DNA of 63,359 nucleotides, counting the filler, from a bacterium (GTDB lineage: Bacteria > UBP15 > UBA6099 > JAJRTR01), in assembly GCA_024278215.1 (NCBI GenBank). It is 6 parts of 6 records of this genome, joined end to end, with 100 filler letters (N's around TTAATTAATTAA, not from the genome) between each part and the next. Parts side by side here need not be neighbours in the genome. Positions count along the whole stretch, not along the records: positions 46,079 to 54,280 come from JAJRTR010000114.1; 5 more parts are not named here. The stretch is one strand, 5' to 3'. Every line of letters begins with the position of its first letter. The stretch's first letter is position 1. Below are positions 9,119-54,280 of the stretch, one piece after another. Both the position numbers and the translations under genes were made by a program. The notes beneath the pieces were generated by a model. It saw only the letters and a program-made list of their open reading frames with translations, was not told the DNA's origin and did not search any database.

Positions 9119-9334
9119 TTATCTCCTGAAGAAAATATTAAGAATGATCGAAAGGATGATACTGATGACAATACATGTGACTATCGGAAAGAAAAATGAA
9201 GTGTTGCCGCGTCTGATATAAATGTCGCCGGGCAGTCTCCAATGGTGCGATAACCTGCCGCCGAACGCAAGGAACGCACCCAGCAGGGCAATCGCCGCCC
9301 CGGCGAACATCAGCATTTTCCCTGTCGACACCAT
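9119..9334 (-). CDS. DUF2905-type small membrane protein
   Basis: RLPGDI..R...FFFPIVTCI..S motif; commonly found upstream of queA. Confidence 0.85.
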   Translation of the reverse strand: MVSTGKMLMFAGAAIALLGAFLAFGGRLSHHWRLPGDIYIRRGNTSFFFPIVTCIVISIILSIILNIFFRR

Positions 9335-9390
9335 ATCCCCCGTATGAAACCGTCCAATCTTATCGTTGCTGTACAGCAATCGTATTATGA

Positions 9391-24256: not shown

Positions 24257-24356
24257 NNNNNNNNNNNNNNNNNNNNNNNNNNNNNNNNNNNNNNNNNNNN
24301 TTAATTAATTAANNNNNNNNNNNNNNNNNNNNNNNNNNNNNNNNNNNNNNNNNNNN
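24257..24356. other. Artificial contig linker
   Basis: N-run with a central TTAATTAATTAA all-frame stop spacer. Confidence 0.98.
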
Positions 24357-45978: not shown

Positions 45979-46078
45979 NNNNNNNNNNNNNNNNNNNNNN
46001 NNNNNNNNNNNNNNNNNNNNNNTTAATTAATTAANNNNNNNNNNNNNNNNNNNNNNNNNNNNNNNNNNNNNNNNNNNN
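45979..46078. other. Artificial contig linker
   Basis: N-run with TTAATTAATTAA. Confidence 0.98.
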
Positions 46079-46219
46079 CGAAATTGTTCAGAGCAAGGCG
46101 GAGGTGTAAAATCCTCGCAGGCGTACTTGTAGAGTACGTCGAGGACGATTTCGCGCCGACAACGCAGCTATGGACAATAGCAGCCGACCGCAGCAGAATC
46201 AGAATTTTGCAATTGGCTC
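46079..46219 (+). mobile_element. MITE family A, partial copy at contig start
   Basis: Near-identical to other copies; right TIR intact. Confidence 0.9.
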
Positions 46220-46739
46220 TATTATCTACCGGCAATATGGGGACGGCGGTAAAGCCTTTTGCGGCATTAAAACCTTTGTGCGGATGTGGCTGTGTCATGT
46301 ATAGCTTCCGCATTGGAGACGGCGCGCACACTGCTCTGAAAACGTGTGGCAGGATATGTGCATCATTCATCGTCCTGGCATAGTTGAGCACGTGAGCAAC
46401 TTGTGTGGTCTTTGAATGCTCGTTTCAGGAACAGGTCGGTTATGCGTGGTGGCATCCCATTCGTACCGGACTCGCGACCGAACCGGCTTAATAATGTGAT
46501 TTGCGTGTGGACATAAATGAATATGAACTATCCCCGACTGAATTCCGGGGAATTCTTTTATATCGCATCCATCGTCCACGGTGGAAATATATAGACTGAG
46601 CGCGCTCGCGCTTACAGCAACTTTTACGACAACACCCTGTTGCTTACGTCGAATCAGGGTGATATGGAGAATACGTGAGATTCAGGTCTCGATCATTCCC
46701 GGGGTAGTCCCCGTTAGCGAGTGCAAAGGAGATGTCAGT

Positions 46740-48293
46740 ATGAAAATCAACACTAACATCAGCGCAATGATGGCAAGGAATGTTCAGCGACTTCATTCCA
46801 AAAGCCTTTCGTCTTCTGTTGAAAGGTTGTCTAACGGACTGAAATTGAATCGCGGCGCGGACAACCCTTCGGGACTCGGCACATCAGAAGTCGTGAAAGC
46901 CCAGGTGAAGGGCACGAACACAGCGATTCATAACGTGGAGGAATCCATCTATCTATATTCGCTCCGGGATGATTATTTCCAAGAACTCGAGGAGATGCTC
47001 AACAGGATGCGCGACCTGGCTGTGAGGGCATCGAACGAAGCCACTCTCACAACGAGAGACCTTGGGAAGATGGACGAAGAAGTGCAGGCGATGAAACGTG
47101 AAGTCAACAGGAAGGCACTGGCATCTTATCAGGTAGATGGCGGCAGACTGCTGTTCAACCCGACAGACCTTGATGTAATATGGGTGCTCGACGACACCGC
47201 CAGCATGGGCCCCTACGCAAACTCGCTTAAGAATGATGCCCCGTCGATGTTCAGTCAACTGGCGAAAGCCGGTTTCGACTTGAGAATGGGGGTCGTAGGT
47301 TTCGACAGTATACTGAGAAATTACGGCTCCACGTCATTTCAGAAAAGCGCAACCGATTTCACTACCGACGTGGATGCTATATTGACGGCAATCGGAGCCC
47401 CGTTAAGCGGCGTGGAGAACGGAATCGACGCGGTAAACTCCGCACTTGCGCTCGGTACGCTGGGTGGAGATTTCAGGGCGAACGCTGAAAAGATGGTGAT
47501 CCTTCTGACCGACGAGGACTCGGACGATTTTGAATATACGAGATGGAGCCCCGCCGAGTGGTGGGCGCCCCCGGCGGACCCCGGACTGTCCAGCGCGCCG
47601 AATGCGGCCGCGGCGGACGCGATACGCAACGCCTGTATTGCCAATCTCGTGGCGGCCGACGCAACTCTGCATGTCGCCGGGGTTGTAAAGGACTCCTCGG
47701 GCACTCTCCAGAATACACCGGACGACGACTACCAGGTCATTGCAAGTGACCCGACCATCAACGGCGGCGTGTACACTCTCGACACCGGCGGCGCGTGGGT
47801 GACAAGCATTACCAGCGCGATGCTCGCTCAGGGCGACGACTGGACTGTTGATTTCCAGGTCGGACCCGACTCCAATCATTCCCTCACTGAAACTTTCAAA
47901 TCCGTTACAACGGAATCCCTCGGCATAGACAGCGTCAATCTTGCCGCCGTCTCCTCCGCAATGAACTCTATTGACGTCGTAGATCGCGCAAAAGAGAATC
48001 TTTCGAACATGCGCCTGCGGACAGCCAATATCGTTTCCCGCCTTCAGCATATCGCCAACGACCTCGCTCATCAGAACATAAACAACTCCGACTTCAGTTC
48101 ACGTCTTAAAGATGCCGATATGGAAGAGGAAATCGTTCAATTCACAAAAACACAGCTTCTTTCCGACACCGCGACGTCCGCACAGGCACATGCCGACAGC
48201 AACATAGAATCGGCAATGCAGCTTATAGATGTCGTAAAATCAGCCAGGCACATCGCTCGATTCAATGACGCTTTTTATAATCGAAACATGTGA
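46740..48293 (+). CDS. Flagellin with inserted von Willebrand factor A domain
   Basis: MKINTNISA..ERLSNGLKLNRGADNPSGL and RMRDLAV in the N-terminal part; FQVG and SRLKDADM.EE...FTK.Q.L in the C-terminal part; internal DVIWVLDDTASM..GVVGF..FR.NA.K.VILLTDE. Confidence 0.9.
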   Translation: MKINTNISAMMARNVQRLHSKSLSSSVERLSNGLKLNRGADNPSGLGTSEVVKAQVKGTNTAIHNVEESIYLYSLRDDYFQELEEMLNRMRDLAVRASNEATLTTRDLGKMDEEVQAMKREVNRKALASYQVDGGRLLFNPTDLDVIWVLDDTASMGPYANSLKNDAPSMFSQLAKAGFDLRMGVVGFDSILRNYGSTSFQKSATDFTTDVDAILTAIGAPLSGVENGIDAVNSALALGTLGGDFRANAEKMVILLTDEDSDDFEYTRWSPAEWWAPPADPGLSSAPNAAAADAIRNACIANLVAADATLHVAGVVKDSSGTLQNTPDDDYQVIASDPTINGGVYTLDTGGAWVTSITSAMLAQGDDWTVDFQVGPDSNHSLTETFKSVTTESLGIDSVNLAAVSSAMNSIDVVDRAKENLSNMRLRTANIVSRLQHIANDLAHQNINNSDFSSRLKDADMEEEIVQFTKTQLLSDTATSAQAHADSNIESAMQLIDVVKSARHIARFNDAFYNRNM

Positions 48294-48421
48294 TTCCCCT
48301 GACGATTCCATGCCCCATCTTTTCCGATACCAACTATCCTTACCGTTGCCGCCGCCCCGCCACTTGCCTTTAAAAGAAATCTACAGCTATAATTCTGTAA
48401 TGTCTTAAGGTGACGTGGAAA

Positions 48422-49381
48422 ATGAAAACAGCAGGCCCGATGAAAACAATCCCTCAGGTTTGTATTAGCGTTTTGCTATTCCTTTTTGTAGCTGTTCCGG
48501 CGGCGCACTGCCGGCCCATCGAGTCTTTCCTTTACATCAATAACGATACTCTCAACATCGGGGACCCCCTGTTTGTAAACATCGAAGTCGAGAATCGCAC
48601 ATCGGCTGATGTCCGGCTGCCTCTTAACTTTTTCACTATGAATGAAAAGGGACGAACCGGCCTTTTTTTCTCTCTTTCAGACCCCGCCGGTATCGAGCTT
48701 GCGAACAGTTGTTCTCCGGAATCGCCCCCCGACAGCGACATGCCGCTTGTCCTCGCACCAGGCGAGTTCCATGGCCGCAAGAACATAAAACTCTCGGAAT
48801 GCTTCAATATGAAACCCGCCGGTGTCTACTCACTTACTGCGATATTCACTTCTGCGGACACAGACGATCAAGTGTGGGCGGGTACCCTTAAGTCGCAAAC
48901 GCTTGCAATCACTGTGAAAGAAAGCGAAGTGCGAATAAAACAAAAACAGGCCGCGAAACTCGTCAACCAGTGGATTGAAAACTATAAACTGTCCACAGCG
49001 ATGGCATACAGGAGCAATATAGCATCGCTGGGCACACCCGCCGTCCCCGCAATAATCAAAGCACTCGACAAGAGCGACAATTACTCTATGGCCAGTGACC
49101 TCCTGGCTCTGCTTGGCGAACTCCCATGCCGCGAAGCGGGTGACGCGCTGATAGAATTCATGCGCTCGGCAGACGACAGAAAATTCAAATCAAATGTTCC
49201 CGGCGGATTCTCAGCCTCCGGAATGCTGTCGGGCGCTGCCATTCGATCTATGGAAAAACTCGCCGGCTATAACCTTATGCGCGAGAAAAAAATGTTCGTC
49301 GGCACAGATGTCGCCGTCCTGTGGAGCAACTGGTGGAAAAATAATCGACCGGCATATCCCAGGGCTGTCCCCGAAGATTGA
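48422..49381 (+). CDS. Secreted hypothetical protein (beta-sandwich plus HEAT-like repeats; start uncertain)
   Basis: Signal-like stretch; LAPGE..G.YSL.A.F; LGTPAVPAII.AL; W..WW..N. Confidence 0.65.
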   Translation: MKTAGPMKTIPQVCISVLLFLFVAVPAAHCRPIESFLYINNDTLNIGDPLFVNIEVENRTSADVRLPLNFFTMNEKGRTGLFFSLSDPAGIELANSCSPESPPDSDMPLVLAPGEFHGRKNIKLSECFNMKPAGVYSLTAIFTSADTDDQVWAGTLKSQTLAITVKESEVRIKQKQAAKLVNQWIENYKLSTAMAYRSNIASLGTPAVPAIIKALDKSDNYSMASDLLALLGELPCREAGDALIEFMRSADDRKFKSNVPGGFSASGMLSGAAIRSMEKLAGYNLMREKKMFVGTDVAVLWSNWWKNNRPAYPRAVPED

Positions 49382-49410
49382 GGTTTTTCATGGCCGCGGA
49401 AGCCTTTTAT

Positions 49411-49869
49411 TTATTTTTGACAACCCGCCTTGATGTCCTGCAGCGACTTGATGGTATTCGCTTCTTCCTTCAACTGATCCAGAGAGACTGAATCGAGAAA
49501 ACCTTCCATTCTCTCTTCAAGACGCTTCCACAACTGGTGCGTGACACAATTCTTTTCTCTCGGGCATTTCCCCTTCGCGCATTTTTCATCCAGGCAATAC
49601 ACAGGCGCAATCGGGCCTTCAACCGCACGGATTACATCACCGATGCTTATTTCTTTCGCATCCTCGGCAAGTAAATAACCACCGCCGAGCCCTTTCTTGC
49701 TCTTCACAATATTCTGTTTCTTCAGTTTGTGAAAAATCTGTTCCAGATAATGCAGGGATATATCCTCCCTTTGTGATATTGCCTGAAGTGATACATATCC
49801 CTGTTCCATGTGCAGAGTCAGATCAAGCAATGCCCGCACTGCATAGCGCCCTCGTGTTGAAAGCCTCAT
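49411..49869 (-). CDS. Rrf2 family regulator (IscR/CymR-like)
   Basis: LSTRGRYA, YLEQIF..L, S.KG.GGGY.L, Cys-rich C-terminal segment ending CVTH. Confidence 0.93.
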   Translation of the reverse strand: MRLSTRGRYAVRALLDLTLHMEQGYVSLQAISQREDISLHYLEQIFHKLKKQNIVKSKKGLGGGYLLAEDAKEISIGDVIRAVEGPIAPVYCLDEKCAKGKCPREKNCVTHQLWKRLEERMEGFLDSVSLDQLKEEANTIKSLQDIKAGCQK

Positions 49870-50048
49870 TTGCAACTCCTTTCGGCGACAAGCCTATACA
49901 ATATGGCTTATTCTTTCCATATCATAATGTTTTTTTTGAACTTTTAAAGGGATTCCCGTATTTCATTCTTTTTTAGTAGGATTTTATATTATGGTTTATG
50001 CAGAAGAATTGTGCGCTTCTTTTCAGCATGGCTCGAGATTCAGCAGGT

Positions 50049-51317
50049 TTACTTTTCCCTGTTATTTCTCTCTATCATCTCTATCACTTTTCCAACAAGC
50101 TTTTCCGCTATAGCGTGTTTGCTCATGAGCGGCGTAGCATCAATGGCTACGTGCAGTCCGTCGACATCCTTCACATATTCCCTACCTGTTTCGGAGACGT
50201 CGTTTTCTGTTTTTTTTCGTATGAACATAACCCTGTTTGTGTCGACTTCGAAGCCGCTGTCGCATGCGGCCACATCATTCAAAACAATCATATCAAGATT
50301 TTTCTTTTTGAGTTTCTTTACCGAGTTCCGTATATGGTTCTGTGTTTCGGCGGAAAACCCTATCAGTATCTGCGATTCCGGTTTATTCTTCCCCAGTGTG
50401 CCCAGTATATCCCGAGTTCGCTTGAGATTCAGCGTCAGCCCACCTTCGGCTTTCTTGAGTTTCTGTTCGCTGACATCCGCTGGTGTGTAGTCGGCTACCG
50501 CTGCGGCCTTGACAATGATGTCCTGATCCGCGCTCACGGCGGTAACTTCTCTGTACATATCTTCGGCAGATGTGATTCCGACAACTTCGGCGCCGGGCGG
50601 GGGATATAGACTTGTTGCGCCCGTAACCAGAGTAACGGCAGCGCCATATTTCAGAAACGCTTCAGCAACGGCATACCCCATCTTCCCCGACGATCTGTTT
50701 GTGATGAACCTTACGGGGTCGATGTATTCACGTGTGGCTCCGGCCGTGACCAGCACACGTTTGCCGCCGAGCGCCGATATTTCCGAGAAGTACATCATCG
50801 TCCGCTCGACAATCTCTTCCGGCTCGGCCATCCGGCCCGGACCCACAGTGCCGCAGGCAAGGTATCCTGTCCCCGGCCGCACAACAGAAGCACCTTCGGC
50901 ACGCAGTATATTCAGATTTTTCCCTACTGTGTGGTCGGTAAGCATACTGTCGTTCATTGCGGGAGCGACGACTACCGGACACTTGATAGCCACATACAAA
51001 GTGGAGAGCAGATCATCGGCAACGCCTGTCGCAAACTTTGCAATTGTGTTTGCCGTAGCAGGCGCCACCACCAGCGCATCGGCCCATTGCGAAAGTTCGA
51101 TATGCTGGTAATTGTTTTCCTGTTTTTCGAACATGCGGTCATAAACAGGAAAACCTGTTATAGCTTCCAGTGTCAGCGGGGTAACGAATTTGAGGGCGTT
51201 CTCAGTCGCAACAACCTTCACCCTGATGTTGCGCTGCTGGAAAAGCCTGATCAGGGTGGGTGCCTTGTACGCAGCGATACCTCCGGTTATTCCAAGCAGG
51301 AGGTTATGTTCTTTCAT
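50049..51317 (-). CDS. coaBC: Bifunctional phosphopantothenoylcysteine decarboxylase/ligase
   Basis: GGIAAYK, APATAN, APAMN, LACG..G.GRM, IDPVRFITNRSSGKMG, AAVADY. Confidence 0.98.
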   Translation of the reverse strand: MKEHNLLLGITGGIAAYKAPTLIRLFQQRNIRVKVVATENALKFVTPLTLEAITGFPVYDRMFEKQENNYQHIELSQWADALVVAPATANTIAKFATGVADDLLSTLYVAIKCPVVVAPAMNDSMLTDHTVGKNLNILRAEGASVVRPGTGYLACGTVGPGRMAEPEEIVERTMMYFSEISALGGKRVLVTAGATREYIDPVRFITNRSSGKMGYAVAEAFLKYGAAVTLVTGATSLYPPPGAEVVGITSAEDMYREVTAVSADQDIIVKAAAVADYTPADVSEQKLKKAEGGLTLNLKRTRDILGTLGKNKPESQILIGFSAETQNHIRNSVKKLKKKNLDMIVLNDVAACDSGFEVDTNRVMFIRKKTENDVSETGREYVKDVDGLHVAIDATPLMSKHAIAEKLVGKVIEMIERNNREK

Positions 51318-51319
51318 TA

Positions 51320-51670
51320 TTATTCCGCATCGCCGAACTCGGCTTCAAAGTCGATGTCTTCTATTTCGAAAGCATCGTCGTCTTCGAGATCGAACTCGCC
51401 TTCGAGATCGATCATTTCGTCGAACCTGAAACTTGCTTCCTGCATTACATCTTCCTCTTCAGGTTCAGACTCTCCGATTGTGTAATGTATTCTTTCAGCC
51501 GCTATCTCTTCCAAGGCGATCTGTAGCGGGTGGTGGCTTTTCGATTTTACATAGACCTCCACACCTTCGTTTATCTGTCTCGCCCTGTAGGATGAAATAT
51601 TCACAAGCAAATATTTGTTGTTTTCAATTTTGAATAACTTTTCATCTGCGACGAAGCTGGTTTCGCTCAT
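51320..51670 (-). CDS. rpoZ: RNA polymerase omega subunit with acidic tail
   Basis: NKYLLV..S.RARQI..G, P..IALEEI; lies between gmk and coaBC. Confidence 0.9.
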   Translation of the reverse strand: MSETSFVADEKLFKIENNKYLLVNISSYRARQINEGVEVYVKSKSHHPLQIALEEIAAERIHYTIGESEPEEEDVMQEASFRFDEMIDLEGEFDLEDDDAFEIEDIDFEAEFGDAE

Positions 51671-51707
51671 TTCCTCACCTCTGATTTTTCCGGGCCTATG
51701 CCAAACA

Positions 51708-52334
51708 CTAAGAAACACGGCTTCTTTCAGCCCTTATAATACATATAATCAATTCGACACATTCGTCAAGTGTTTCGTTTTTTACCACGTAGTCATATTC
51801 AGGAATACTCTCGATTTCCTCGAGCGCATTTTTCATTCTCAGCTCAACGGTTTTCTTGTGTTTCTCTCCTTTTTCGTTTGTCGGCCTGCCGGCGAGCCTG
51901 CTTCGTATCTCATCGAGTGGCGCAGTGATAAAAATCATTATTGCTTCAGGTTTTCTCTGCTTTATCTGTTTCGCCCCTTTAACGTCTATCTCGAGCACGA
52001 GGTCTTTTCGCCTCGAGAAGGCTTCTCTCAAGTTGGATGCCGGTGTGCCGTACATTTCGCCATGCACATGAGCCCATTCCAGAAATTCGTCTTTTTCGAC
52101 AAGCTCTTCGAATTGCGATCTTTCCATAAAATGGTAATTGACGCCATTCTCTTCACCGGGCCTCGGCTGCCTGGTAGTTGCCGAGATCGAAAACTCAAGC
52201 GTACCGGCTGTTACAGGATGATTCAGCAACCTGCCGACAACTGATGATTTTCCGACTCCCGAAGGGCCGGAAAGAACGATCACCAAGTTTTTTCTTTCAT
52301 CACTTTTTTCGCTATAGTCCGGGAGCGTACTCAT
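51708..52334 (-). CDS. gmk: Guanylate kinase
   Basis: GPSGVGKS, SATTR.PRPGE..GV.YHF, YGT, LEIDV.GA. Confidence 0.98.
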   Translation of the reverse strand: MSTLPDYSEKSDERKNLVIVLSGPSGVGKSSVVGRLLNHPVTAGTLEFSISATTRQPRPGEENGVNYHFMERSQFEELVEKDEFLEWAHVHGEMYGTPASNLREAFSRRKDLVLEIDVKGAKQIKQRKPEAIMIFITAPLDEIRSRLAGRPTNEKGEKHKKTVELRMKNALEEIESIPEYDYVVKNETLDECVELIICIIRAERSRVS

Positions 52335-52457
52335 TTTGATTCTCCAGCATAGAGTATTTCAGTTTCGCCGCTTTGCCGCGCCATCTCCGGAATCGACCGG
52401 CGACATCTGCCGGCCCATCTGCATCCCGAGCAAAACGTGAAACTCGGGGCCGTCACA

Positions 52458-52730
52458 TTATTCCTTGTCGCGATGTATATGCGGGCCTTCTTTTTCAGCA
52501 AACCTGTTTGCAATTGTTTCAGGCTGAAGAGCGGAAAGAACGATGTGGCCGCTGTCCATGACGACAATCGCGCGCGTCCTTCTTCCACATGTCGAAGCAA
52601 TCAGCGTACCCTTTCCTTTTGCCTCCTGCATCAATCTTTTGATAGGTGCTGATTCAGGCGAAACTATTGCGATTACTCGATCCGCGGAAATTATGTTCCC
52701 GAATCCTATATTTATAAGTCTCGTTTTCAA
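52458..52730 (-). CDS. remA: DUF370/RemA family protein
   Basis: LINIGFGN...[36 protein letters not shown] before TTG. Confidence 0.88.
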
Positions 52731-52812
52731 TATGACCTCCCTGACCTCTTCGTTTGCACTTTTCTTGAATTCTTCCTTAAACAACATGCTTCCAGGGTTT
52801 TCGCTCAACCAC

Positions 52813-52842
52813 TAACCCGTTATATTTCACCAATGCGGGTAA
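52813..52842 (-). repeat. Short hairpin repeat family F (CCCGCATTGGTGAAATATNCGGG), copy 1
   Basis: Related copies at 55268-55298, 56990-57018 and 59997-60025. Confidence 0.75.
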
Positions 52843-53048
52843 AAATGCTGTATTTACCTGTTCTATCGTCGGCGAACTCTTGCCTGCTTTTATAGCATTA
52901 TTCTATTATCTCGCAACAAAAATGCAATAAAAACCATGACTTTTTGTGAAAAACATAAGAATATCTTCAATATTCTACCTTCAGCTGTCTCTTTCGTTGC
53001 ATAACGGGGGAAATCACAATTCGCCACCGGTCAGAACCGTATACTATC

Positions 53049-53178
53049 GAGCCAATTGCAAAATCATGTTCGTAGCGAGGTCGAGCGAAATTGTTCAGAG
53101 CAAGGCGGAGGTATAAAATCCTCGCAGGCGTACTTGTAGAGTACGTCGAGTACGATTTTACACCGACAACGCAGCTAT
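53049..53178 (+). mobile_element. MITE family A, 3'-truncated copy
   Basis: Left TIR GAGCCAATTGCAAAAT is intact; similarity stops after GCAGCTAT. Confidence 0.88.
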
Positions 53179-53274
53179 TGACTTTATGTAAAGCAAAGAG
53201 TTGTGTAAAGTCATTGTGCATTCCTCCTTTCTACACTACATGTTGTGGTCACCCACTTGATTCCCGGATGCCCC
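53179..53274 (-). mobile_element. ISL3-like left-end remnant with a few candidate transposase codons
   Basis: 50-bp end shared with 34033-34082, followed by AGGAGG and MHNDFTQLFALHKVN, then cut by MITE A. Confidence 0.5.
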
Positions 53275-53460
53275 TTCTTTTTCTTCGCTTCTGTCGTGAT
53301 GTAGATAACATTCCTCCGGAAAAGTTGACTATTGAAGATGTGGAATATGAAACATTCACGAGATTCCTTGAATACTTGAAAACAGATCGCGGGTGCGGGA
53401 CACGAACAGTGAACAACAGGCTGGCTGCTTTTCATTCGTTTTTTCGTTACGTCCAGAAGT
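53275..53460 (+). pseudogene. Tyrosine recombinase N-terminal fragment (RIT-type)
   Basis: PPEKLTIEDV....FLEYLKTDRGC..RTVNNRLAAFHSFFRYVQ; no catalytic domain. Confidence 0.75.
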
Positions 53461-53561
53461 TGCGTTGCGGACCGCAATGTTATTTCAGCGGCTGCCGCGC
53501 ATACCAGGAATATCATAGCGAATAATAGAAAAGAAAAAATAAATTTCTTTTTTCCGGACAT
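53461..53561 (-). pseudogene. Truncated 5' end of a membrane-anchored protein gene
   Basis: MSGKKKFIFSFLLFAMIFLVCAAAAEITLR starts 7 nt after the upstream stop, then runs into the recombinase fragment. Confidence 0.45.
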
Positions 53562-53568
53562 AATTATT

Positions 53569-54280
53569 CTATTCTTTATTCGCCGGTTCGATCACAGCCT
53601 CGGCTTCGACAGGTTCGCTGTACATCTTTGTTTTGTCTTTGGCCTGGAAGCGGAAGTGATAATCACCCGGCGGGAAGAGATCGGGGATCGAGAAGTCCTG
53701 CTTGACGACACCGTCCTTGTCCGGCGGCATCGAGAGTGTCAGTCCTATCTCGTCGATGGTAATAAGAATCTGCGTCAGGTCGCCGTCCGGGTCGTCGGCG
53801 TGTATCTCGAAATGGATTTTCTCGCCGATCTTTATTTTTTCGGGCAGGTCCAGCTTTGTGATCACCGGGGCGTGTGCACCTTCGGGATACTTGATAGGCA
53901 GTACGTCGATTTCGGCGGTGAGTTCATTGCTGGTTTCGCCCCAGCGGTCGACGGCCACGGCGCGAACAAGAGATTTGCCAAGCGCGGCTTTTTCATAAAT
54001 CCTGTATCTACCTGTATAGACGCCGTCCTTTTTAACTTTGTCGCCGCCGTTTTTTCCGTCATCATAAAGCAACGCCATATCGTTGCCGCAGTCGAGCCGC
54101 ACCTTTACAAATATTATGTCTCTGTTGGGGTCCTCGGCCTTGACGCTGGACTTTATCAATTTGTTCTGCCGGGCTTCGCCGTCTACGCTCACCTCGAAGT
54201 CTGAAACCTTCGGTGGCATGTTCTTCGATTCGTCCCTTGCCCAGGGCGGGTGATATTCTTTGCGCTTCAGATACTTATTA
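53569..54280 (-). CDS. Extracellular protein with Ig-like/choice-of-anchor X-like domains (5' truncated by gap)
   Basis: LYDDGKNGGDKVKKDGVYTG, two DP(N/D)xD repeats; frame is open to the gap. Confidence 0.7.

Follow-up and report, generated by a model that had tools for sequence, protein, structure and literature searches.

The middle regions of flagellins are commonly viewed as hypervariable decoration, and to the best of our knowledge an added activity has so far been demonstrated only for flagellins that bear a peptidase. In these flagellinolysins, the hypervariable region contains a metallopeptidase domain (Eckhard et al., 2017, PMC5595980; PMC7643111). The window studied here, that is, the whole analysed stretch of 63,359 nucleotides from the bacterial assembly GCA_024278215.1, contains a gene that a first-pass annotation had described as a flagellin displaying a complete von Willebrand factor A (vWA) domain with a metal ion-dependent adhesion site (MIDAS). 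The encoded protein resembles the flagellinolysins in that a folded, functional domain would sit in the exposed middle of a flagellin, where a filament displays thousands of copies of its activity, but the insert is a predicted vWA binding module and not a peptidase. Membership in the flagellinolysin family was rejected, as the sequence has no HExxH motif and the NCBIfam flagellinolysin model NF033876 reached only 29.2 bits against a cut-off of 205, over residues 357-425 alone.

Among solved structures, the flagellin of Geovibrio thiophilus (9AU6) is the best sequence match, and its outer domains share the insertion point of the window insert. These domains (D2-D5), however, are beta-rich, with Ig-like or beta-sandwich folds rather than vWA folds, according to Fields et al. 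(2024, PMC11532411), and 9AU6 is without the C-terminal extension found in the window protein. A filament subunit with a vWA metal-site module is known in the Streptococcus sanguinis type IV pilin PilB, where the grafted module is needed for adhesion and its MIDAS binds Mg/Mn, as stated by Raynaud et al. (2021, PMC8179133); the PilB structure 7ba2 is also among the top Foldseek matches of our insert. PilB, on the other hand, belongs to a type IV pilus, and its module lies at the end of the pilin and, according to the same paper, can probably be accommodated at the pilus tip alone, whereas the window module is inserted internally and could be presented over the full length of the filament. By analogy, PilB of S. 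sanguinis is the closest working precedent for an adhesive vWA filament subunit. The sortase or type V pilus tip adhesins SpaC, PitA, and Mfa5 and the LapA-type vWFA domains share the fold, rank among the top matches, and likewise belong to bacterial surface filaments or adhesins, but as adhesins they occupy tips or occur in single copy, and their scaffolds are unrelated.

Flagellins with functional inserts (flagellinolysins) and insertion before the D1 hairpin (9AU6) are already known, while the new element is a vWA/MIDAS module in a flagellin, its conservation, and its multi-paralogue family. Among the papers listed, literature searches found no title or abstract opening that describes a vWA-bearing flagellin, and the main texts of PMC11532411, PMC5595980, and PMC7018530 do not contain 'Willebrand', 'integrin', or 'vWA', although the 682 outer-domain clusters in Supplementary Data 1 of PMC11532411 could include one. 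A recognisable, strongly conserved module for predicted metal-dependent binding in a flagellin makes the idea of a flagellum built for adhesion open to direct test. Besides, the 14-22 flagellins per related genome, propeller-bearing ones included, point to a much wider use of flagellin as a modular scaffold in uncultured anaerobes, and the arrangement is a natural template for engineering filaments that display folded domains of ~230 residues before the D1 hairpin.

Architecture of the vWA-flagellin

The Pfam scan placed all three expected domains above their cut-offs, namely Flagellin_N (PF00669) at residues 3-124 with 61.9 bits (cut-off 26.6), VWA (PF00092) at residues 145-270 with 25.6 bits (E 1.7e-5), a small margin over its cut-off of 23.8, and Flagellin_C (PF00700) at residues 411-495 with 32.2 bits (cut-off 23), so that the flagellin ends seen in the first-pass annotation do flank the insert. 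The best NCBIfam flagellin model scored 110.7 bits, compared with 45.8 bits for the FlgL model TIGR02550; none of these scores reaches its full-length cut-off, as is to be expected when a protein bears an insert. Solved flagellins matched the protein in 57 cases at E<=1e-5, the best being 9au6_A (E 1.5e-29). Judged by these matches, the protein is a true flagellin, nearer to flagellin than to FlgL, and is best described as a short, D0/D1-only flagellin with a vWA domain of the integrin beta-I type spliced in.

The insert lies after ...GGRLL, at the end of helix ND1b, and before the D1 hairpin that starts with WTVDFQVGPD, unlike the insertion position of Salmonella FliC, which follows the hairpin. 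Residues 3-149 of 9au6 align to query residues 1-151, and residues 664-792 (of 793) to 368-496; from this two-segment alignment, the 9AU6 outer domains occupy the same gap as our insert. As 9AU6 was solved as a filament (PMC11532411), the insertion site is compatible with assembly and outward display, in agreement with the surface exposure proposed earlier.

An AlphaFold2 (AF2) model of the 234-residue insert, built on a 60-row alignment, reached a predicted local distance difference test (pLDDT) score of 87.9 and a predicted template modelling score (pTM) of 0.88, and it shows the alternating strand/helix order of vWA domains. Its N-terminal half comprises beta1 (143-151), an alpha-helix (154-176), beta-strands (180-188 and 192-196), two further helices (204-217 and 228-237), and a strand (250-257); a long low-confidence loop leads into the C-terminal half with helices at 289-305, 329-335, and 352-363 and strands at 308-314 and 343-346. 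The top Foldseek rows were vWA-fold proteins, including integrin I domains, the von Willebrand A3 domain, SpaC, PitA, PilB, and the LapA vWFA domain. VIA-align ranked the beta-I domain of integrin beta-8 first (6om1_F; Z 18.3, root mean square deviation (rmsd) 3.6 Å over 196 residues), with the alpha-2 I domain within one Z unit of it (Z 17.6, rmsd 3.1 Å, 188 residues). At the level of the model, the insert is a complete vWA fold, and the failure to model as such, named beforehand as a ground for refutation, did not occur. The limits first assigned to the insert, 47166-47832 (residues 143-364), correspond to the modelled domain, which runs from the strand at 143 to the end of the helix at 363, and the quoted motifs were located as well: DVIWVLDDTASM at 145-156, RMGVVGF at 182-188, SGVENG at 223-228, and FRANAEKMVILLTDE at 245-259.

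In sequence searches against solved structures, the insert alone gave one chance-level row, and its profile gave weak rows only, topped by an unrelated capsid protein (E 0.007). When the insert (residues 138-371) was searched alone against 1.84 billion representative proteins, 191 matches were obtained at E<=1e-3, the best 150 of which were examined. The non-flagellin relatives among them are mostly large multi-vWA proteins, with Pfam VWA in 8/8 and Integrin_beta in 6/8 of those scanned. As an observation on base composition, the insert has a G+C content of 0.585, compared with 0.50 and 0.48 in the flagellin parts on either side, and 0.69 compared with 0.59 and 0.55 at third codon positions.

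The first-pass annotation had also pointed to a non-canonical C-terminus, and indeed the protein extends 21 residues past the end of 9au6, which falls opposite residue 496. The extension follows the pattern DVV-x-NSE-x-VE-x-FN-x-x-F, is kept in 7/8 close relatives and across a 15-member clade, and is specific to that clade, while another clade of vWA-flagellins ends canonically with ...LSLLG or ...LQLLS. The tail could serve as a handle for a chaperone or a regulator, or it may affect the channel.

Table 1. Positions of the vWA-flagellin gene parts and of other features (window coordinates, or locus coordinates where a locus is named)
Feature	Position	Strand	Basis
Coding sequence (CDS) of the 517-residue vWA-flagellin, stop codon included	46740..48293	+	Open reading frame (ORF), Pfam, alignment of relatives
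Shine-Dalgarno-like AAGGAG, 8 nt 5' of the ATG	46726..46731	+	Read directly
N-terminal D0/D1 helices, residues 1-137, ending YQVDGGRLL	46740..47150	+	Pfam Flagellin_N; alignment to 9au6 residues 3-149
Inserted vWA (integrin I-like) domain, residues 138-371 (predicted)	47151..47852	+	Pfam VWA; AF2 pLDDT 87.9; Foldseek and VIA matches
MIDAS loop 1, D151-D-T153-A-S155, end of beta-1	47190..47204	+	Invariant in 8/8 close sequences; aligned to integrin beta-8 DVSAS
E226 of G-x-E-N-G, MIDAS loop 2 ligand, integrin-beta type (putative)	47415..47417	+	Relatives and integrin beta-8 alignment, family counts
D258 (MIDAS loop 3) and acidic cluster E259-D260-S-D262-D263	47511..47528	+	Relatives and integrin beta-8 alignment, family counts
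D1 beta-hairpin after the insert, residues 368-386, WTVDFQVGPDSNHSLTETF	47841..47897	+	Strands 368-373 and 381-386 in full-length model; 9au6 aligned from residue 664
C-terminal D1/D0 helices, residues 404-496	47949..48227	+	Pfam Flagellin_C; 9au6 alignment
Non-canonical 21-residue C-terminal extension DVVKSARHIARFNDAFYNRNM	48228..48290	+	9au6 end opposite residue 496; kept in 7/8 close relatives
PD40 propeller flagellin	L028:4182-5894	+	E range 1e-40 to 1e-57 over four genes
PD40 propeller flagellin, divergent neighbour of L028:4182-5894	L028:2010-3674	-	Same E range
PD40 propeller flagellin	L034:1518-3287	-	Same E range (1e-40 to 1e-57)
PD40 propeller flagellin	L042:670-2526	+	Same E range (1e-40 to 1e-57)
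Contig-joining linker, N runs around TTAATTAATTAA; flagellin piece starts at 46079	45979..46078	.	Read from sequence

The metal site and the proposed adhesive filament

A MIDAS consists of five coordinating residues on three loops, a DxSxS motif, a Thr (alpha-I domains) or Glu (beta-I domains), and an Asp. In the window protein, the candidate residues D151-x-T153-x-S155, E226, and D258 are invariant in the 8/8 closest sequences, and in the model they map to the end of beta1, the position just before the helix at 228, and the end of strand 250-257, which are the three MIDAS loops. The insert profile aligns them with DVSAS, PEGGFDA, and TD of integrin beta-8, and we take E226 to be a loop 2 ligand of the beta-I type, at the position taken by Thr in alpha-I domains. 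The pattern D-x-[ST]-x-S..E..D occurs in full in 50/56 flagellin-vWA sequences, a set made up of 44 stored proteins and 12 locus ORFs in which the window protein occurs in two start-codon versions and several duplicates remain; the six exceptions are one fragment, three sequences with Asn in place of D258, and two altered at or beside the Glu position. The MIDAS-like site noted in the first-pass annotation is present, but not as the textbook DxSxS...T...D, since the second residue is Thr and the loop 2 residue Glu as in integrin beta-I. From the alignments, the metal site appears complete and is of the integrin beta-I kind with Thr replacing the first Ser, and it is predicted to bind a divalent cation.

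In integrin beta-I domains proper, the MIDAS is flanked by an adjacent site (ADMIDAS) and a synergistic metal-binding site (SyMBS). The integrin beta-I domains of beta-8, beta-3, and beta-6 are the best structural matches (Z 17-18) and share the DxSxS...E...D arrangement with Glu in an E-G-G-x-D-A context, whereas the window protein differs from them in its second site residue and in its host protein, which is a flagellin and not a hybrid domain. Assignment to integrin beta-I proper was dropped, as Integrin_beta was absent for the window protein at E<=1 and no acidic pair follows the first loop. The loop that follows the D258-E-D-S-D-D cluster (47511-47600, residues 258-288) is poorly modelled (pLDDT ~52-55), and its length varies among relatives, which may have up to ~25 additional residues rich in Pro/Gly. 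Lying beside the metal site, it is a candidate specificity loop.

We surmise that the vWA-flagellin would be exported by the flagellar type III system and would polymerise either by itself or, as seems more likely, along with some of the other flagellins that the cell makes, in the role of a minor subunit or of one that forms a segment. The chain of a vWA domain enters and leaves opposite the metal site, which lets integrin I domains sit as insertions; because of this geometry, and of the anchoring on D1 at an outward-projecting point, the domain would project from the filament surface, its metal site (D151, T153, S155, E226, and D258) facing outward. The filament would then carry many copies of a Mg/Mn/Ca site whose coordination is completed by a ligand carboxylate, be it on a protein, a polymer, or a surface, and would become a polyvalent, cation-dependent adhesin. 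We lean, if only by a little, towards this adhesin reading of the filament or of a segment of it, in which we infer that the protein is exported and polymerises, that its site points outward, and that it binds metal and adheres.

Extreme diversity is typical of flagellin middles (PMC7018530). Here, the insert is 53-58% identical to that of five of the seven close relatives and 44-50% to that of the other two, compared with 53-61% for the N-terminal and 41-51% for the C-terminal core. It is unusual for the middle of a flagellin to match the core in conservation. Such conservation suits packing as much as binding, and it would also fit a structural outer layer, in which vWA-vWA contacts along the filament change its stiffness or waveform, an effect that dimerising outer domains have in other flagella, and no external ligand is bound; the metal site of one subunit might be linked to an acidic residue of its neighbour. 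The invariant acidic cluster D258-E-D-x-D-D beside the metal site is consistent with such a layer, and the domain of ~230 residues is, to our knowledge, near D2+D3 of Salmonella FliC in size and could tile the surface. Outer-domain contacts that modulate motility are documented as well (PMC8931119). Nevertheless, we regard an outer layer as unlikely: purely structural outer domains are usually beta-rich and Ig-like (PMC11532411), the vWA termini lie opposite the metal site so that the site should face away from the core and not sideways, and the 2-4 divergent vWA paralogues per genome look like varied specificities rather than a single lattice.

Several points weigh against the adhesin reading itself. 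The full-length model is poor (pLDDT 61.7); the integrin beta-8 alignment, though agreeing with the structural ranking, is not significant by sequence (E 0.41); and the site departs from the canonical one in the Thr at its second position, the Glu of loop 2, and the missing ADMIDAS-type acidic pair. The Flagellin_N score of 61.9 bits, compared with ~125 bits in short flagellins of related genomes, marks a divergent subunit, and the conserved 21-residue extension would sit at the lumen end of D0, where it may bear on polymerisation. Furthermore, the 660 bp upstream of the gene contain no sigma-28-like site (none at >=9/12), and sigma-70-like matches there are no more numerous than in shuffled sequence.

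The divergent core, the unusual conserved extension, and the lack of a sigma-28 site in these 660 bp would also suit a protein that is not part of the filament body, whether the flagellin ends merely act as an export or chaperone signal of a soluble or cell-associated vWA protein or the subunit takes a position at the hook-filament junction or the tip; the location of the gene apart from flagellar genes, in the window and at both orthologous loci, points the same way. We hold this to be quite improbable, because the complete D0 and D1 segments are kept on both sides, hairpin included, the protein is nearer to flagellin than to FlgL models, and the family lies among ordinary flagellins in the core tree, away from a long-branched pair that is likely FlgL. 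Besides, one vWA-flagellin clade retains the canonical ...LSLLG end, and orthologues have sigma-28-type promoters as other flagellins do. A sigma-28-type TAAAG-N15-GCCGATA motif is located 250 nt 5' of the L001/L016 orthologue and 288 nt 5' of the L002/L017 orthologue (L001 ~9340-9370; L002 ~9300-9330), these being the two orthologues with upstream DNA to examine, and sites of this type occur at -75 in L019 and L023. Overall, the motif was found upstream of 12/59 flagellin-family regions, some of which are redundant or truncated, compared with ~0.3 expected by chance. No sigma-54 motif was found upstream of the window gene, and no intrinsic terminator 3' of it.

Distribution and origin of the family

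The first-pass annotation implied that the protein was unique, which did not survive the searches: the vWA-flagellin family comprises at least 44 sequence clusters, a count that includes the window protein twice, with several paralogues per genome. Hidden Markov models (HMMs) made for each end of flagellin, N-terminal and C-terminal, identified 33 of the best 150 (of 191) insert matches as flagellins with the same insert, three of them fragments. A word-indexed search returned seven close relatives, 41-55% identical in the insert, and an insert-profile search returned 15 flagellin-length proteins, the window's included, and four non-flagellin vWA proteins. In a collection with one genome per species, 39 stretches matched two peptide patterns, and three of these (L001-L003) encode relatives; their genomes (G001-G003) all belong to a single phylum, of which the collection holds 12 genomes. 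Seven of these 12 carry the insert at E<=1e-10 with 11 matches in total, the copies numbering 2, 2, and 3 in G001-G003. Ten more distant relatives were checked, and as one of them is labelled a Halanaerobiales metagenome-assembled genome (MAG), the architecture is not confined to one phylum. The vWA-flagellin is a rare design, present in a few uncultured bacteria.

This recurrence also bears on the possibility of an artefact, either through chimeric assembly or through decay of a gene that resembles vWA by chance, for which the short contig (8202 bp) from a metagenome bin speaks. The frame is uninterrupted (ORF 46581-48293, + strand), the key residues do not vary, the predicted fold has high confidence, and seven close relatives from other assemblies have the same junctions, in addition to the matches across the phylum. 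With the same architecture found in independent assemblies from several sources, the chimera that the first-pass annotation had allowed for is set aside, and we give an artefact next to no credence. The ATG at 46740 was assigned as the real start because AAGGAG precedes it by 8 nt and 7/7 relatives start at an aligned M-x-I-N.

A quick IQ-TREE analysis (LG+G4) of the D0/D1 core columns only, with 80 rows, placed the window protein in a 15-row clade composed entirely of vWA-flagellins (support 99), beside the G001 orthologue L016 and P0007, which by length and identity is taken to be the G002 copy (L002/L017). The vWA label requires six changes on the core tree, compared with a mean of 26.5 for shuffled labels, and paralogues of one genome are spread over different clades. 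The approximately unbiased (AU) test did not reject a single clade of all 44 vWA rows (p 0.507), and one old vWA insertion followed by duplication is therefore possible.

Flagellin repertoire and genomic setting

G001, G002, and G003 contain 16, 14, and 22 Flagellin_N matches, in open frames of ~220 to 1027 residues, which for genomes of 3.9-4.9 Mb is a repertoire of unusual size and heterogeneity. The earlier suggestion of a minor or alternative flagellin fits these numbers. The types include short flagellins of 270-325 residues, vWA-bearing ones, PD40-bearing ones of 555-619 residues, and others of up to 1027 residues whose insert has no Pfam match. The PD40-bearing flagellins have 4-5 PD40 (TolB-like) beta-propeller repeats between Flagellin_N and Flagellin_C, and weaker propeller matches were observed in three more flagellins (L041, L048, and L061) besides the four genes in Table 1. 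FliD was found in 3/3 of these genomes, FlhA in 2/3, and FliA above its cut-off in 2/3, a flagellar context that speaks for the adhesin reading.

We tentatively entertain, as a rather doubtful reading, that this small uncultured phylum uses the flagellar filament as a programmable display scaffold, in which plain core subunits are combined with many that bear different binding modules. The modules might then be the 2-4 divergent vWA domains, the PD40-type beta-propellers, and unknown domains, and the window protein might, with the same reserve, be one cassette among them. If this were true, a cell could change the adhesion target of its flagellum by choosing or mixing subunits.

The window is made up of six contig pieces, as judged from five linkers (N runs around the six-frame stop TTAATTAATTAA) at 24301, 34214, 46023, 54325, and 59936, so gene order across these points has no meaning. 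The vWA-flagellin gene is in the fourth piece (46079-54280, 8202 bp), only 660 bp from its start. The earlier statement that no flagellar genes are nearby holds for the 6 kb downstream and for the orthologous loci L001 and L002, within 9-10 kb on each side, but upstream in the window it covers only the 660 bp of the same contig; the 63-kb window contains no other flagellin. The neighbours are Rrf2, CoaBC, RpoZ, Gmk, and RemA in the window, an AddAB-like helicase-nuclease and UvrB at L001, and a pyridoxal phosphate (PLP) enzyme, an iron alcohol dehydrogenase (Fe-ADH), a nuclease, and a GH2 protein at L002. A conserved gene neighbourhood was therefore ruled out, as the three genes are flanked by unrelated, differing housekeeping genes. 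Directly downstream of the vWA-flagellin gene, 48410-49381 (+) encodes a 323-residue protein with an N-terminal, signal-like hydrophobic segment; it was dropped as a potential partner, as it matches no Pfam family and has no homologue in any locus compared. A sigma-70-like site (10/12) is present at 48364-48393, just 5' of the gene for this 323-residue protein.

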